A stretch of 64,000 nucleotides of DNA, from NCBI GenBank assembly GCA_965198225.1, contig CBDAOY010000008.1, forward strand, positions 736,001 through 800,000. The letters are read 5' to 3'. The stretch comes from Terriglobia bacterium. GTDB taxonomy: Bacteria; Acidobacteriota; Terriglobia; 20CM-2-55-15. The notes under the pieces were generated by a model. The model searched no databases. It saw only the letters and a list, made by a program, of their open reading frames with translations, and had not been told where the DNA came from. The number at the start of each line of letters is the position of its first letter. Positions within the stretch are counted from its first letter, which is position 1. This document shows, in pieces, positions 11,493 to 58,537 of the stretch. Both the position numbers and the translations under genes were made by a program.

Positions 11493-12305
11493 TTACCGGA
11501 ATAAGAACTCCTTCAGTTCGCCCAGCTTTTCCAGTCCCAGCCCCATGATCGCTCCTTCGTGGACTTCGCCGTCAACTGCGAAGAAAAGTTTAGGCTCGTT
11601 CGCCGCATCGAACAGTTCGGCGCCGAGGTCGAACGGGAGGACGGGGTCGTCCTGGGCATGGATGATGGCGATCGGGAAGCGGATGCGGCCGATCTTTCCG
11701 ATCGAATCGTAGCGTGTGCGCAGAATCCAACCCATTGGGAGCCCGAAGATCCGCCGGGCAACTCCGGCAACGCTCGTAAGTGGAGCCTCGAGGATCAATC
11801 CGCCGACCCGTTCCTCGCTTGCGAGATCCACACTGACCGCCGTGCCCAGCGACTGGCCCATGAGATAGATCTTTTCTGGGGCGTAACCTCGCGACCGCGC
11901 ATAGTCGTAGGCTCCCCGGATGTCGGAGTACGTTCCTTCTTCCGACGGACTCCCGTCGCTGTTACCGTAGCCGCGGTAGTCGTAAGCAAAGACATCAATC
12001 TCGAGTTCCTGCCTGAGGAAGTCCGCCATCTCGCGCCTGTGGCCGATGTTGCCGCCGTTCCCGTGGCTGACGATCAGCACTCGCCCGGCGCCATGCGGGA
12101 GGAACCATCCGTGCAGGCGCGTTCCGTCGCGAGCCTCGAAATACACGTCGTCGTGGGGGGATGACGGGCTCCCGATGACGCCGCCCGTCGGGTAGTAAAT
12201 CAGTCGATGTTCAAACAGCAGCATGTAAGCAACCAGCACGACGGAAGTGATGACGACGATACGCACCAGGGGCAAAAGTGACCGGGCGTGGCGAAAAGGG
12301 GGCAT
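11493..12305 (-). CDS. Membrane-anchored alpha/beta hydrolase (ABHD/Bem46-like)
   Basis: HGNGGNI, YDYRGYG.SDG.PSE, GQSLG nucleophile, HAQDD; the longer ORF to 13691 is antisense read-through. Confidence 0.88.
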   Translation of the reverse strand: MPPFRHARSLLPLVRIVVITSVVLVAYMLLFEHRLIYYPTGGVIGSPSSPHDDVYFEARDGTRLHGWFLPHGAGRVLIVSHGNGGNIGHRREMADFLRQELEIDVFAYDYRGYGNSDGSPSEEGTYSDIRGAYDYARSRGYAPEKIYLMGQSLGTAVSVDLASEERVGGLILEAPLTSVAGVARRIFGLPMGWILRTRYDSIGKIGRIRFPIAIIHAQDDPVLPFDLGAELFDAANEPKLFFAVDGEVHEGAIMGLGLEKLGELKEFLFR

Positions 12306-12428
12306 TTCTGGCGAGTCTCTCTCAGGCGTGGTCCGAGCGCAAGCGCCGATGCCCAAAACTCGGTCTTTCAGACAGCCGGGACTTGTGCTGAAATATGCCG
12401 GTCGAAGCAATCCGGAGGAGTGTTTCTT

Positions 12429-13379
12429 ATGCAGCGATTCTCGGTTTATCTGACCCTCTTTCTGCTTCTGTGCGTTGGAGGCACGGCCGTCGCCCAGGAT
12501 GTGATCCGCACCTCGAACCCCGGCGACCGGGGTCTGGGCGAAGACGACTTCCCGAGAGTCAAGAGGATCGCTCGGAATGTCTATACCTACGAAGCGCTGA
12601 CAGGACCGGCCGACGACCGCTACACCACGAACACGATGTTTGTCGTCAGCGACGAGGGTGTCCTGGTTGCCGATGGCCAGGGAAACCCTGCCGAGACGGC
12701 GCGGCTCGTGGAAGAGATCGGCAAGATCAGTGACGCGCCGATCACGCAGGTCGTGATCTGTTCCGATCATGGGGATCATACGAACGGCAACGTGTCGTTT
12801 CCTCGGACGGCCGACTTCATCGCTCATCCAGACTCGAAGGCGAATCTGGAGCGCGCGGCGAGCAATCCCGCCCGGAGGCCCGATGCACCTGAGGTCGTGA
12901 TGCCGACGACACTGGCCCAGGACCGTCTGGTCGTGGAACTCGGGAGTACGGAAATCCAGATTCTGTTCCTTGGTCGGGCACATACCGGCGGAGATCTGTT
13001 CGTCTACCTGCCGGAGGAAAAGATCCTGTTCACGACCGAGGTCTTCCTGAACCGGCTCTTTTCGGGTTATCGCAGCTCCTACCCGAGCGAGTGGCTGGAG
13101 GTTATGACCAAAGCGGAAGAGCTCGACGTCGATGTCTACCTTCCAGGCCACGGTTTCATCGATGATCCTGAGGTTCTCGAGGAAGAATGGTTCGCGTACA
13201 AGCGCCACATGGAGGTCGTACTTGCAGAAGTCCAGCGCCTGCACGCGGCGGGACTCTCCGTTGAGGACGCGATCGATCAGGCGGATTTCGGCGAGTACTC
13301 CACGTGGTCCGGAGCCGAATCGCAGGGGCCCATCGGGATCCGGCGGATCTACGCGGAGCTGAACGGAGAGTTGAACTAG
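12429..13379 (+). CDS. Secreted MBL-fold metallo-hydrolase (cyclase-like)
   Basis: Signal peptide; SDHGDHTNGN, GRAHTGGD, PGHG; RBS GGAGGAG. Confidence 0.85.
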   Translation: MQRFSVYLTLFLLLCVGGTAVAQDVIRTSNPGDRGLGEDDFPRVKRIARNVYTYEALTGPADDRYTTNTMFVVSDEGVLVADGQGNPAETARLVEEIGKISDAPITQVVICSDHGDHTNGNVSFPRTADFIAHPDSKANLERAASNPARRPDAPEVVMPTTLAQDRLVVELGSTEIQILFLGRAHTGGDLFVYLPEEKILFTTEVFLNRLFSGYRSSYPSEWLEVMTKAEELDVDVYLPGHGFIDDPEVLEEEWFAYKRHMEVVLAEVQRLHAAGLSVEDAIDQADFGEYSTWSGAESQGPIGIRRIYAELNGELN

Positions 13380-13450
13380 TGGCCTGTAACAGTGCGATCG
13401 GTACCTGCGTTCGGCGGAACGGCGTCGGATTCTAGGAGTGACGCTCGAGC
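13376..13450. mobile_element. Truncated left part of the E2-type structured MITE
   Basis: Near-identical to 46073-46147 (CTAGTGGCCTGTAACAGTGCGATCGGTACCTGCGTTCGGCGGAACGGCGTCGGATTCTAGGAGTGACG); starts on the MBL gene's TAG. Confidence 0.85.
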
Positions 13451-13490
13451 TGAAGGCTGATTGCTCTGCGATACTTGAAGAATTAGTGGG

Positions 13491-13519
13491 TTGACACACT
13501 TCAGGCGGGAGTTCAAACT
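13491..13519 (+). promoter_or_regulatory. Sigma70-like promoter of the phhA leader
   Basis: TTGACA-17 nt-CAAACT; predicted TSS a few nt before ATG 13530. Confidence 0.65.
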
Positions 13520-13529
13520 TGTTGTTGCG

Positions 13530-13664
13530 ATGAACCTCGAGAGCACAAATCGAATTGGACAAACCGACGACGCGGCCACTGCCGCAGCCCAGCGGCGTGC
13601 TCTGTCTGCCGGCTACTACTTTTATTACTCTTACGCGTACTCGCGGAGGTGGATAGCCGGGTAA
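13530..13664 (+). CDS. Tyr-rich attenuator leader peptide (44 aa)
   Basis: MNLESTNRIGQTDDAATAAAQRRALSAGYYFYYSYAYSRRWIAG*; 6 Tyr in 9 codons just upstream of the hairpins. Confidence 0.8.
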   Translation: MNLESTNRIGQTDDAATAAAQRRALSAGYYFYYSYAYSRRWIAG

Positions 13665-13689
13665 GCTGATCGAAACAGCAAAGGATTTC

Positions 13690-13732
13690 AAAGCCCGCTT
13701 CCACCGACGGTGGAGGCGGGCTTTTTCTTTTT
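13690..13732 (+). terminator. Intrinsic terminator (3:4 hairpin of the attenuator)
   Basis: AAAGCCCGCTTCCACC-GAC-GGTGGAGGCGGGCTTT followed by a TTTTTCTTTTT tract. Confidence 0.9.
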
Positions 13733-13749
13733 GGAAGGAGGAAACTCAG

Positions 13750-13920
13750 ATGATTCACGATCCATTCGATGATCCGGGCCTGGAGGTGGCCTGGGAACCT
13801 GCACCAGATGACGAGCCACCGGCTCGCCTGTTGCGGTTTCCCGGGGTCACAGTCGCTTCCGAGTTCGACGAGCGTGTGTTGAACGACCCCAAGGAGGTCC
13901 TCGATGGAAGTCGCGCTTAA
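13750..13920 (+). CDS. Small acidic hypothetical protein (56 aa) preceding phhA
   Basis: RBS AAGGAGG; MIHDPFDDPGLEVAWEPAPDDEPPARLLRFPGVTVASEFDERVLNDPKEVLDGSRA*; overlaps the phhA start. Confidence 0.5.
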   Translation: MIHDPFDDPGLEVAWEPAPDDEPPARLLRFPGVTVASEFDERVLNDPKEVLDGSRA

Positions 13921-14767
13921 GAGCATCGCTTTCCTGGACCTTGACCACCCCGGCGCCAGGGATCCGGTATACCGCCTCCGCAGGGATTCCATCGCGCAAC
14001 TGACTCGGGAGTCGAGAGAGAAGGGAGAGCCGCCGCCGGTTCTCGAATACACCGAAGAAGAGCATGGCGTCTGGAGGATCATTTGCACCAGGCTGGGTCC
14101 GCTGCACGAACAGCATGCGAACAGGCGCTATCTGGAGGCGAAGAAGGCGCTTCGAATACCCGAGGATCACATTCCGCAGCTTCGGGAGTTGAGCGATCGA
14201 CTTGCCAGCTACCATGGTTTTCGGCTCGGGGCGGTCGAGGGGCTCGTCGATTCCCGGAGCTTCCTGAGCCAGTTTGCGCAGAAGTCGATGTGGTGCACTC
14301 AGTACATCCGTCACGCCTCCAGGCCCGAATACACACCGGAGCCCGACATCATCCATGAGGTCATCGGACATGTACCCGCGTTCACGGACAAGGACCTGTG
14401 TGACCTTTCGGTTTTGATCGGCCGGGCGGCGAGGGTTGCGAATGAAGAACAGCTCGAGCAGTTGGAGCGGATCTACTGGTTCACGATCGAGTTCGGGCTG
14501 ATCGAAGAGGCCGGACAGGTGAACGCCTACGGTGCGGGCCTCCTGGGTTCATTCGGCGAACTGCAACACGTGTATTCGGGAGAAGTCGAGAGGAAACCTT
14601 TTGTTCTGGATGAAGTCGTCAACGCGACCTACAACCACACCGAGATGCAGTCCAGGCTGTACGTCGTCCCGTCGTTTGCATTCTTGAGGGAACAGATCGA
14701 GCTCTACCTCCGGAAGTACGGGTTGGAGCATGCGCTGGAGAAGGAAGAAGTGACGAGCGAGCAGTGA
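13904..14767 (+). CDS. phhA: Phenylalanine 4-hydroxylase (biopterin-dependent aromatic amino acid hydroxylase)
   Basis: CTQYIRH...P.YTPEPDIIHEVIGHVP, YWFTIEFGL, AYGAGLLGSFGEL; Fe ligands His, His, Glu present. Confidence 0.93.
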   Translation: MEVALKSIAFLDLDHPGARDPVYRLRRDSIAQLTRESREKGEPPPVLEYTEEEHGVWRIICTRLGPLHEQHANRRYLEAKKALRIPEDHIPQLRELSDRLASYHGFRLGAVEGLVDSRSFLSQFAQKSMWCTQYIRHASRPEYTPEPDIIHEVIGHVPAFTDKDLCDLSVLIGRAARVANEEQLEQLERIYWFTIEFGLIEEAGQVNAYGAGLLGSFGELQHVYSGEVERKPFVLDEVVNATYNHTEMQSRLYVVPSFAFLREQIELYLRKYGLEHALEKEEVTSEQ

Positions 14768-14844
14768 GAAGAAGAAGTGGCGAGTGACAAGTGACGAGCA
14801 AGAAAGGACATAGAATGGGGACAGTCTCAACTGTCCCCATTCTA
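14749..14844. repeat. Heptamer tandem repeat (AGTGACR) plus GGGGACAG palindrome
   Basis: AGTGACGAGC..GAGTGACAAGTGACGAG; TAGAATGGGGACAGT-CTCA-ACTGTCCCCATTCTA. Confidence 0.65.
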
Positions 14845-14927
14845 TCGTACGTGTTTTGTTGCGTTTAAGGGACCCCTCGCACGCACCCGGTCCCCGCGGC
14901 GCAGCCGCCAACGGCCTACGACCTCCC

Positions 14928-16958
14928 CTACCGCTGGTCTCCTCCCCCCATCAGGTAGTCCCAGTGCTCCCGGGCCCGGCCGAGGATCCGCGGAAGGTCT
15001 TCCCCGAGAAGGTACCCGTCGTCGATCAGTTCGATCGCAGCCTCGGACACCAGGCCCAGGTAGTGCTCCCGGCTCTGGTAGCGTTCCTGGATCGAAGACC
15101 TCGGGTCGTCTTTCTGCATGCGCTCGGTCCGCGTGAGAGGGAGCGGTATGTAGGACCCCTGCATCCCTGACAACACGTTCTCCGGTCCGGATTCCGGACG
15201 GAACAGGTTCCAGCCGGTGTAGGTCGCAAGCGGTACTGCTACCTCCGGCATTTTGAGGCCGCCGACCTCGTTGCCGTCCGCATCGACCTGGGGAACCATC
15301 ACCGGAAAGCTGGACAGGACTGCCGGGGGTTCGATCGTCACGATTCCCTTCGTACGAAACTCCGGACCGTAGTCCGCGCGATAGGCGCCGTGGGGAGCGG
15401 CGGGCTGACCCACGCCCGGGAGTTCGGGGAAATCCACGTCCGCGGGAAGGACCAGTTCGTCACCGGCGATGCGCGGATAGCTGCTCGCCGGTGGAGGTAG
15501 TCCGTCCCGCGTCCAGTTGTCCATCGCCAGGAGCAGGCTCCGCATGAACCAGGAGTAGTCGTTCGGATTGCTCAACTGCTGCCCGCTGGTTTGTACCGGA
15601 GGGAATCGTCCGGGCCCGTGCTGGCCGCCGGCGAACGAGTAGATGCGGACGTTCTCCATCAACGGTATGTCTTCCAGACCGTCGATGGTCGTATGAATCA
15701 ACGATGCCGCCCGGCCCCAGTACTCGTAGGACGAGTTCGTGTAGAAGACCTTCGGCAGGAACTGCGGTTCGACGCGTGACAGGAGACCGTCCCGGATGCC
15801 CGTCTCCGCGTCGTTCTGCTCGACGTCCGTGAACGGGAAGATGTCGCTCGGGTAGAGCTTGTTCAGGAAAGGATGCCCGTCGCGGGACGGCTGCGCGAAC
15901 CGATGGTTGAAGCTTCCTCGGCCGCCCCCGGCCACGTGGGCGATGACGCCGTCAAAGGCCTTCCGGTGCCCCTCGTCCTCGTTGAACCCATAGTAGAGAA
16001 ACGTCCGTAGAAACCGGCCGCTCTGGGAGATGCCAAAGGCCAGGGCCCTGTCGATCGCGCCCTCGGGCAGCGAGAGTTCTTCGGAGGAGCCGTACTTCAG
16101 GCGCGAGACCGCATCCCGGATGGCAGCAGAACCCAGGCCGACGAGCGGCGGATCCTGCGACGTGTAGACGACGTCGTAGAGCTTGTGGGGTTCGAATCCG
16201 CCTGCCAGATAGACGCGCCCCCGATCCGGAACGACCTGTCCGTCCTCCAACCTCGCGAACTGCCACTGATCGCGGGGGACGACGCGGCGCTGGCCATCGA
16301 CCGAGTCCCGGACCGTCATCACGTTGGTGGAAGCATCCGGGTTCGCGACCAGGTAGGGGATGTGGTTGCGGTCGGCCAGGGACGCGTCGAACACCTTCCG
16401 GTTCACCACGACCTCACTCCGGACCAGGCCCTCGAGGGCCTCCCCGTCGTCGGTGGCGATCGGGGGATAGACACGAACCAGCCCATCCCGGAGGGGAGGA
16501 TCGAACTGCCAGCCCAGCCACAGCAGGGTGAACCCGTTCCGCATCAGGAAGCCGTCGCCCATATGCGCTTCGGTCTCCGGATCGATGCTTCCCTGGCCGC
16601 GGTTGAAGTATCGCAACATACCCTTGCCGCCCCGGTTCGACACTTCATAGAGGACCGTGCCGTTTCCCCTGGCGGCATCTTTCGGTTTGATGAGAAAGAA
16701 GTCGGAGTGAAATTCGACCCGGCCGCGTGTGTTTCGGGGCGCCAGGTCGATGTCGGCGATGATTCGGTTGGCCGAGTTGGCTGGATCGACCTCGAAGTAG
16801 ATCGTGCCCACCAGCTTCTCGTACGCGCCGGCCAGGCCATAGGCCTTCCCGACGGCCAGGTCCTCGCGCGAATGCACCTCGATACGAACGACTTCGGCCG
16901 ACGCGGTCGAAACGGCCAAGAAAACCACCGCTAGAAGTATGGGTAGGGAGCGACGCAT
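14928..16958 (-). CDS. Secreted alpha/beta hydrolase-domain protein (Abhydrolase_10 type)
   Basis: Signal peptide; YEVSNRG, GWQFD, GISQSGRFLR, EYWGRAASL, VDADGNE.GG, PLATYTGWN. Confidence 0.82.
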   Translation of the reverse strand: MRRSLPILLAVVFLAVSTASAEVVRIEVHSREDLAVGKAYGLAGAYEKLVGTIYFEVDPANSANRIIADIDLAPRNTRGRVEFHSDFFLIKPKDAARGNGTVLYEVSNRGGKGMLRYFNRGQGSIDPETEAHMGDGFLMRNGFTLLWLGWQFDPPLRDGLVRVYPPIATDDGEALEGLVRSEVVVNRKVFDASLADRNHIPYLVANPDASTNVMTVRDSVDGQRRVVPRDQWQFARLEDGQVVPDRGRVYLAGGFEPHKLYDVVYTSQDPPLVGLGSAAIRDAVSRLKYGSSEELSLPEGAIDRALAFGISQSGRFLRTFLYYGFNEDEGHRKAFDGVIAHVAGGGRGSFNHRFAQPSRDGHPFLNKLYPSDIFPFTDVEQNDAETGIRDGLLSRVEPQFLPKVFYTNSSYEYWGRAASLIHTTIDGLEDIPLMENVRIYSFAGGQHGPGRFPPVQTSGQQLSNPNDYSWFMRSLLLAMDNWTRDGLPPPASSYPRIAGDELVLPADVDFPELPGVGQPAAPHGAYRADYGPEFRTKGIVTIEPPAVLSSFPVMVPQVDADGNEVGGLKMPEVAVPLATYTGWNLFRPESGPENVLSGMQGSYIPLPLTRTERMQKDDPRSSIQERYQSREHYLGLVSEAAIELIDDGYLLGEDLPRILGRAREHWDYLMGGGDQR

Positions 16959-58216: not shown

Positions 58217-58537
58217 ATGGGTCTTTCCGACAAAACCTGCATCCCATGCCGGGGAGGAATTCCGCCGCTTACTGCGGACGAGATCACCCCTCTGGCCGCC
58301 GAGGTGGCGACATGGTCGGTTGTCGATGATCACCACATCGAGAGGAAATTCGAATTCCCCGACTTCAGCGCCGCGCTGGAGTTCGTGAACAGCGTTGGAG
58401 GGATCGCTGAAGCAGAAGGGCACCATCCCGACATCTACCTGGCATGGGGCAAGGTTGGCGTGACGATCTGGACGCACAAGATCGACGGACTTACCGAGAG
58501 CGATTTTATCCTCGCGGCCAAGATCGACAAGATCTGA
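58217..58537 (+). CDS. phhB: Pterin-4-alpha-carbinolamine dehydratase
   Basis: CIPC.GG.PPL, F.DF..A..FVN, AE.EGHHPDI, WTHKIDGLTESDFILAAKID. Confidence 0.93.
   Translation: MGLSDKTCIPCRGGIPPLTADEITPLAAEVATWSVVDDHHIERKFEFPDFSAALEFVNSVGGIAEAEGHHPDIYLAWGKVGVTIWTHKIDGLTESDFILAAKIDKI

Follow-up and report, generated by a model that had tools for sequence, protein, structure and literature searches.

A predicted tyrosine-codon leader-peptide attenuator upstream of phhA in a Terriglobia bacterium

The window analysed here is a stretch of 64,000 nucleotides from a Terriglobia bacterium (contig CBDAOY010000008.1; G000:C8:736001-800000, where G000 is the 6.4 Mb genome, assembled in 9 contigs and scored as 97% complete). 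Upstream of phhA, the gene for a pterin-dependent phenylalanine 4-monooxygenase, it carries what is very probably a tyrosine (Tyr)-sensing leader-peptide transcription attenuator, which would read the supply of charged tRNA-Tyr and gate both phhA and a small open reading frame (ORF) in front of it. A first-pass annotation, made from the DNA letters, had proposed such a device, a reading that comparative and structural computation supports. The element is compact, occupying ~210 nt, and combines a Tyr-rich leader ORF with mutually exclusive RNA hairpins, an arrangement that recurs upstream of phhA in related genomes. The gene content of G000 suggests that the enzyme under this control makes tyrosine rather than degrades phenylalanine (Phe).

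The phhA leader and its alternative folds

The leader ORF (Table 1) translates as MNLESTNRIGQTDDAATAAAQRRALSAGYYFYYSYAYSRRWIAG. Its regulatory cluster holds six Tyr codons and one Phe codon in nine, with the Tyr codons beginning at 13614, 13617, 13623, 13626, 13632 and 13638 and the Phe codon (TTT) at 13620; both the 44-codon near-leaderless frame and the cluster stand where the first-pass annotation had read them. As in classical attenuators, the gene to be regulated is preceded by a short ORF in which regulatory codons are clustered. The annotation had also proposed TTGACA-17-CAAACT as the promoter, and in alignment A2, which comprises the window and five related loci, the -35 hexamer is invariant and a -10 of the form CA[ACG]ACT is kept at the identical 17-nt spacing in 6/6 loci. 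The leader ATG (13530) lies 10 nt after the -10 hexamer in the window and 10-13 nt after it across A2. This conservation supports a real promoter with a very short 5' leader, both of them predicted, and the leader ORF would accordingly have a near-leaderless start.

The arrangement before phhA is not a chance occurrence. A six-frame scan of the whole 6.4 Mb genome for stop-to-stop frames no longer than 90 codons, in which at least 4 of 7 codons near the end encode Tyr and which are followed within 110 nt by a hairpin and T-run of -12 kcal/mol or stronger, gave one match, the phhA leader, and no second Tyr leader in G000. The same scan run with a criterion of two tryptophan (Trp) codons returned 76 matches, which we regard as noise. 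A threonine/isoleucine (Thr/Ile) leader candidate from the scan, at G000:C3 near 106191, was rejected as an out-of-frame reading of a 52-codon ORF having its own GGAGG.

Folding recovers the protector (1:2), antiterminator (2:3) and terminator (3:4) pairings of the first-pass annotation at the places where it had put them. The terminator stem (13690-13724) has 16 pairs and is followed by TTCTTTTTGG; the hairpin by itself is worth -29.8 kcal/mol. This intrinsic terminator follows the leader ORF and precedes the structural gene. The fold of lowest energy for 13526-13740 (-88.8 kcal/mol, z = -4.82, with 0/200 shuffles as good) holds the protector, in which 13609-13622 pairs with 13646-13660, together with the terminator. 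In the antiterminator, 13648-13662 pairs instead with 13693-13705 (-26.3 kcal/mol for 13641-13712). Segment 2 ends at the leader stop codon. In these predicted folds the 2:3 pairing excludes the terminator and the 1:2 pairing excludes 2:3, as the classical scheme has it.

Table 1. Positions of the leader elements and associated genes in the window
Feature	Position	Strand	Basis
Putative promoter: -35 TTGACA (13491-13496), 17-nt spacer, -10-like CAAACT (13514-13519)	13491..13519	+	read from sequence
Leader peptide ORF, 44 codons plus TAA (13662-13664)	13530..13664	+	sequence; orthologous ORFs
Segment 1, 5' arm of the 1:2 protector hairpin	13609..13622	+	minimum-energy folds; pairing across 6 loci
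Regulatory codon cluster YYFYYSYAY	13614..13640	+	translation; sole such cluster plus terminator in the genome
Segment 2, pairs with segment 1 (via 13646-13660) or segment 3 (via 13648-13662)	13646..13662	+	folds
Segment 3, 5' arm of the terminator; 13693-13705 can instead join segment 2 (antiterminator)	13690..13705	+	folds
Segment 4 (terminator 3' arm 13709-13724) plus T-run	13709..13734	+	terminator scan
Conserved small ORF, 56 codons, MIHDPFDDP...	13750..13920	+	own GGAGG; sequence conservation
phhA, pterin-dependent phenylalanine 4-monooxygenase, 287 aa	13904..14767	+	PF00351, NF008877
phhB, pterin-4a-carbinolamine dehydratase (Pterin_4a)	58262-58534	+	profile match

Constraining the ribosome footprint, a check that the first-pass annotation had recommended, gave the switch expected of an attenuator in the window and, in the same form, in the five other aligned loci. 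In this model the RNA is masked from its 5' end to 12 nt past the codon, and the nascent RNA is folded as far as the terminator loop, before segment 4 is made. With the ribosome stalled at any of Tyr codons 1-5 of the window, the antiterminator is predicted at -22.2 to -28.0 kcal/mol and ties up 13/16 bases of the terminator 5' arm; with the ribosome at the stop codon the values are -1.5 kcal/mol and 5/16. Across the set of 70 leaders described below, half or more of the 5' arm is sequestered in 67/70 when the ribosome is at the first Tyr codon, in 70/70 at the middle one and in 0/70 at the stop codon. The modelled geometry is thus that of a classical attenuator: segment 2 is accessible while the ribosome waits at the Tyr codons and is masked once it has reached the stop codon.

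Taken together, these elements suggest the following sequence of events, in which we infer the kinetics of the switch and its response to tyrosine. Transcription would start a few bases before the leader ATG. When Tyr-tRNA is ample, a ribosome translating the leader would reach the TAA at 13662 and cover segment 2, the 3:4 terminator would form and transcription would stop near 13725-13734. When Tyr-tRNA is scarce, the ribosome would stall on one of the first five Tyr codons (13614-13634) and leave segment 2 free to pair with segment 3 before segment 4 is made, such that no terminator forms and the polymerase continues into phhA. If the leader is not translated at all, both 1:2 and 3:4 would form and transcription would terminate. 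The leader would in this way impose product feedback on the single step from Phe to Tyr.

The region is represented in RNA data. Four metatranscriptome runs of one study contain short contigs 100% identical to the window, among them one over 13785-13950 and one over 14026-14193. In two of the four runs a contig of ~164 nt spans 13535/13536-13698, i.e. the leader as far as the terminator 5' arm, which is a weak hint of transcription. Such contigs show presence in an RNA library and give no ends, strand or level, and the parts that they leave uncovered prove nothing; their ends are uninformative because an inverted repeat or hairpin can break assembly.

Conservation of the leader upstream of other phhA genes

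A PhhA match was present in 13 of 60 related genomes, including six close orthologues (56-72% identity) in G002, G003, G012, G020, G007 and G017. The first-pass annotation proposed testing homologous leaders for a conserved Tyr cluster, and a Tyr-rich leader followed by a terminator was observed in 7/8 evaluable close loci (the window, L002, L003, L004, L005, L007 and L095); L096 and L097, with too little upstream sequence, were left out of this tally. Before its stop codon and the ensuing terminator, the leader peptide ends in SFGYYFYYFSFRGGG in L002 and L003, in RAYYFYTGGGG in L004, in RAYYFYYFYAAGGG in L005 and in SFSYYFYYVS in L095, a metagenome contig encoding a PhhA of 71% identity, and it reads MTSGTAEVTHSYYYGYPYWSRRRGEK in L007. 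The orthologous ORFs lie at the same place and comprise 36-44 codons in L002, L003, L004, L005 and L095, and 26 codons in L007.

Some 100 nt ahead of phhA, the eighth locus, L006 (G017; the same place as L018, genus g5), retains a TAGACT resembling a -10 hexamer and a hairpin resembling a terminator. It lacks the Tyr-rich frame and segments 1-2 that its congener L007 has, as if by deletion.

For a wider view, 160 phhA loci were gathered from two collection scans, of which 6 with <200 nt upstream were excluded, leaving 154 evaluable (L015-L019 are the same places as L003, L004, L002, L006 and L007). Frames in which 7 codons include 3 or more Tyr were found in 77/154, and 70/154 also had a terminator starting within 160 nt after the stop codon, compared with 12/154 and 2/154 for the reverse complement of the same regions passed through the same pipeline. 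These 70 loci represent 57 distinct leaders, the best 7-codon windows of which consist of 71% Tyr and 2% Phe. The design is thus conserved ahead of orthologous genes, as in classical attenuators. Seven Tyr-rich frames with no terminator (L022, L044, L058, L082, L091, L165 and L174) were taken as chance occurrences.

Most of the 70 belong to a second leader type, exemplified by M..SYRYYYYYGPLSAWRDGRAMGCRELIN before the stop codon, which occurs on metagenome contigs from soil that encode a PhhA with 42-47% identity to that of the window. A 401-genome sample of the same phylum places this type in family f38, in genera g71, g134 and g166, where 7/9 loci have leader and terminator. The leader of L049 ends in LYAYSYRYALGVRA. 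By contrast with these loci, Pyrinomonadaceae-type phhA loci from the genome collection mostly showed no Tyr leader, and none was found in G082, an unpublished genome among those scanned. We also observed a very short leader, MK[FL]SWLSS..YYYPPLGGG, with a terminator 40-120 nt upstream of phhA in L021 and L059; the metagenome-assembled genomes (MAGs) concerned were deposited as Candidatus Peribacteria, a label or binning that may be wrong, and their PhhA is 52-57% identical to the window's.

Covariation of the stems, another check proposed in the first-pass annotation, gave a favourable outcome, in that the stems stay paired in the relatives, with a few compensatory changes. In A2, being six related sequences with little statistical power, 93.2% of cells are paired in the antiterminator (30-52% when the partner is slid), 91.4% in the protector (39-63% slid) and 92.2% in the terminator, where 3 pairs change on both sides. 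At one segment-3 column, U in the window and C elsewhere, the segment-2 and segment-4 partners co-vary (A against G in each). In alignment A4, made of 55 f38-type leaders, 87.6% of antiterminator cells are paired (30-63% slid) and 14 cells are changed on both sides, as are 11 pairs of the terminator, in each case a number reached by 0/500 shuffles. The covariation in A4 supports the design as a class, rather than the window's copy specifically.

Aromatic pathway genes and the surroundings of phhA

The product of phhA has the Biopterin_H domain of phenylalanine 4-monooxygenases (PF00351; E 2.3e-76, 257.4 bits) and passes narrowly the cut-off of the corresponding NCBIfam equivalog (NF008877; 250.6 bits against 247), by which profiles it is assigned to that enzyme. 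Its best solved relatives are PAH catalytic domains (E 5e-66). Solved bacterial PAHs (~1e-28 to 1e-32) are far more distant from it than the animal PAH, TH and TPH catalytic domains (E 5e-66 to 1e-53).

The first-pass annotation asked whether the genome lacks tyrA and took PhhA to be biosynthetic rather than a catabolic enzyme of the PhhR-induced type. Our results are consistent with both suggestions. Neither TyrA domain had a match in G000 (PDH_N and PDH_C; 14/14 and 12/14 control genomes positive), and the same was true of prephenate dehydratase (PDT; controls 14/14), of the chorismate mutase domains CM_2 (13/14) and CM_1 (3/14) and of homogentisate dioxygenase (HgmA; 1/14), while 4HPPD reached 31.7 bits against a cut-off of 277 (1/14 controls over it). 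Chorismate synthase is present (controls 14/14), as is PhhB (Pterin_4a; 6/14). Since TyrA, prephenate dehydratase, chorismate mutase and homogentisate dioxygenase were not found, PhhA is most likely the only tyrosine source in G000, and not catabolic, as far as gene content tells; absence from a MAG means 'not found' and is not proof. The missing prephenate dehydratase and chorismate mutase, which go beyond the account given in the first-pass annotation, further imply that the cell probably imports Phe.

The pattern extends to relatives with respect to PDH_N and PDT, whereas the searches for CM_1, CM_2 and chorismate synthase covered G000 alone. PDH_N is above cut-off in 48/60 relatives overall and in 0/7 genomes with a close phhA, G007 and G017 having PDH_N matches of 22-24.5 bits. 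PDT was not found in G000, G001, G002, G012 and G020 and is present in G003, G007 and G017. An assembly gap is an unlikely reason for the lack of both PDT and PDH_N in G002, because that assembly is a single contig. In family f38, including genus g100, PDH_N is above cut-off in 0/20 phhA-bearing genomes. Gene content thus suggests Phe auxotrophy in the window's genus, with dependence on external Phe.

Between the terminator and phhA lies a small ORF of 56 codons (13750-13920), likewise beyond the earlier account, which overlaps the phhA start by 17 nt. The six loci of g1/g10 and L095 share its N-terminal pattern MI.DPF..P..EV and an [RK]L[LV] motif, the rest of the sequence varying; the ORF is absent from genus g5 and has no Pfam or NCBIfam match. 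A predicted complex of PhhA with the 56-aa product scored 0.02 against a mark of 0.32, which speaks neither for nor against binding.

With respect to the wider neighbourhood, a 520-nt spacer separates phhA from a metallo-beta-lactamase-fold gene (12288-13379, +), and the genes flanking phhA are hydrolases. Between phhA and a convergent alpha/beta-hydrolase gene (14928-16958, -) there is a 16-pair hairpin (14810-14845), scored by the scan as a terminator of the - strand, which may act for both. phhB and phhA are 44 kb apart and share no operon.

Alternative explanations and known systems

Several observations weigh against Tyr-dependent attenuation at phhA. A simple consensus promoter scan lists no site at 13491-13519, because CAAACT is weak (3/6 positions of TATAAT), and no Shine-Dalgarno sequence precedes the leader ATG at 13530, so that translation would rely on the assumed near-leaderless start. 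Covariation in A2 is thin, the antiterminator having one compensatory pair, a number matched by 80/500 shuffles. With the ribosome modelled at the sixth Tyr codon, segment 2 is covered in part, which leaves -10.4 kcal/mol with 7/16 bases tied up. The antiterminator (-22 to -28 kcal/mol) does not exceed the terminator hairpin (-29.8 kcal/mol) in stability, and the switch must therefore be kinetic, as in classical systems. The RNA contigs, all from one study, cannot show ends or strand. L006, which keeps a terminator-like hairpin and before it a short frame devoid of Tyr, counts as a miss. Many phhA genomes in which tyrA was not found also have no leader (family f38, genus g100): in g100 genomes (e.g. 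L191, L193, L196 and L197), which have phhA and no PDH_N above cut-off, the 650 nt before phhA contain no Tyr leader. Biosynthetic PhhA can therefore occur without the leader, and in g100 its control seems to be of another kind. To these points must be added the Phe codons of the cluster, which bear on the first of the alternatives.

That first alternative, which we judge unlikely, is that the attenuator senses both aromatic amino acids, or mainly Phe, with stalling at Phe codons driving much of the read-through. The cluster includes one Phe codon in the window and three in L002 and in L003; YYFYY, its Phe encoded by TTT, is shared by the window, L002, L003, L005 and L095, and L004 has a shorter YYFY. 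The possibility is also retained because aroR of Corynebacterium glutamicum (Phe-Tyr-Phe), the nearest case with a Tyr codon, is reported to answer Phe limitation and not Tyr availability (PMC11802643, in the portion of that source available). However, inducing a Phe-consuming enzyme at Phe shortage would be harmful, especially in a genome in which genes for Phe synthesis were not found. The composition of the core windows across the 57 distinct leaders is overwhelmingly Tyr, as given above, and the clusters of L007, L021, L059, L049 and the f38-type leaders contain no Phe. The TTT of the window falls in segment 1 and pairs with segment 2, and it may be held there by RNA structure.

A second alternative, very improbable in our assessment, takes the hairpin to be a constitutive terminator or the end of a small RNA, the Tyr-rich frame being an untranslated accident and the phhA promoter lying downstream. 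It would account for the lack of a consensus promoter and of a Shine-Dalgarno sequence before the leader and for the hairpin of L006, which precedes phhA with no Tyr-rich frame, and the RNA contigs over 13535-13698 would also fit a stable short RNA. It accords poorly with the retention of the frame, the Tyr cluster and the position of the stop codon relative to segment 2 among loci whose peptides otherwise differ, with the reverse-complement control (2/154 against 70/154) and with the sole whole-genome match standing before phhA; moreover, the 16 nt from the end of the T-run to the start codon at 13750 leave little room for a separate promoter. More improbable still is a ligand- or tRNA-binding RNA of riboswitch or T-box type, or a peptide that is itself the functional product, with stalling not the sensor: the region is strongly structured (z = -4.82) and f38-type leaders keep the peptide after the Tyr run (GPLSAWRDGRAMGCRE), but that peptide coincides with the nucleotides forming segment 2, the leader types share the Tyr run and architecture and not the peptide sequence, and in the Rfam searches no family attained its gathering score, T-box and riboswitch families being missing even among matches at E up to 10.

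Tyr-dependent attenuation at phhA would, to judge from the catalogues, be new in its specificity. The first-pass annotation knew of no characterised Tyr leader on phhA, and we likewise found none in Rfam 15 or in the literature searched. A search of 13000-15000 against Rfam 15 at E up to 10 gave sub-threshold matches only, with no T-box or riboswitch family, and 13 related loci likewise gave no match at gathering score. The known leader families scored well below their gathering values (Thr_leader RF00506, 21.2 bits against 55; Trp_leader RF00513, 16.8 against 41; Leu_leader RF00512, 15.2 against 50), and the element is thus not assigned to the Rfam Thr, Trp or leucine (Leu) leader families; other sub-threshold matches were to the PyrG leader and, spuriously, to HepC_CRE (28.8 bits against 140). 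Full-text literature, in a coverage that leaves out most subscription journals and supplements, yielded neither a Tyr leader peptide nor an attenuator of phhA.

If the proposed mechanism is correct, a Tyr leader may serve as a sequence-level marker of anabolic, as opposed to catabolic, PhhA, which annotation cannot otherwise tell apart. The predicted Phe auxotrophy may be useful in the cultivation of hard-to-grow Acidobacteria and in metabolic models. We also put forward, tentatively and at somewhat less than an even chance, a broader proposal, i.e. that phhA Tyr leaders are a widespread uncatalogued RNA class marking lineages in which a eukaryote-like hydroxylase replaces TyrA, and that the window's genus has lost the entire Phe/Tyr branch beyond chorismate, with the leader as the single gate and the small ORF as a second layer of control. 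Were this so, these would be free-living Acidobacteria with an animal-like aromatic economy, Phe being essential and Tyr being made from it on demand.

The enterobacterial attenuators (trpL-trpEDCBA, pheL-pheA, pheM-pheST, hisL and thrL) provide the general four-segment leader-peptide model. The phhA leader resembles them in having regulatory codons clustered in a short ORF, the protector, antiterminator and terminator hairpins, and a stop codon placed such that a finishing ribosome would block segment 2, as well as in its target being synthesis of the amino acid sensed. It differs in its Tyr codons, in a target that is a hydroxylase and not a chorismate-branch enzyme, and in a start that looks near-leaderless. 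The trpL, pheL and pheST leader-peptide attenuators are described in PMC11802643, the available portion of which also reports, citing Neshat et al. (2014), that the aroR leader of the C. glutamicum aroF operon acts by ribosome stalling, with Phe limitation mattering and Tyr having no effect. Like the phhA leader, aroR is an aromatic-codon leader that includes Tyr and controls an aromatic amino-acid gene, but it has one Tyr codon as opposed to six and acts on DAHP synthase.

With Tyr T-box leaders of Firmicutes the proposed device would share its signal, the charging of tRNA-Tyr, and its output, a terminator or an antiterminator. T-boxes, unlike it, bind the tRNA directly and need no translation, and among the matches at E up to 10 in the region 13000-15000 there is no T-box. 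According to a survey of Actinobacteria published in 2005, Tyr genes are under T-boxes in other species, and the survey itself found no Tyr RNA element (PMC1262725).

The same enzyme family is regulated by aromatic amino acids in Pseudomonas aeruginosa, where phhABC is controlled by PhhR/TyrR (PMC1173090, available in part). In that system a sigma-54 activator induces catabolic phhA-phhB-phhC, which feeds the homogentisate pathway, whereas the device proposed here would be one of RNA and ribosome, with repression by the product. The locus does not resemble a catabolic phh operon of the PhhR type, in that phhB lies 44 kb off and HgmA and a true 4HPPD were not found; PhhR itself was not searched for. 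That source, a review of the TyrA family, presents predicted attenuators on tyrA operons and assigns phhA to PhhR or AsnC-type regulators, a leader on phhA being unmentioned in the portion available (PMC1173090). In Dyella japonica and Legionella pneumophila, PAH is the tyrosine route where no prephenate or arogenate dehydrogenase was found (PMC7311316). The available portion of that report describes no regulatory leader in these organisms, and G000 differs from them in that its Phe branch was also not found.

In the literature seen, some of it in part, tyrosine is the aromatic amino acid that has no described leader-peptide attenuator, its control being assigned to TyrR/PhhR or to T-boxes. 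The mechanism proposed for the phhA leader is classical, and its Tyr specificity and its phhA target are new to the catalogues and literature searched. A Tyr-codon leader on phhA would thus extend the enterobacterial principle both to a new amino acid and to a new kind of target.

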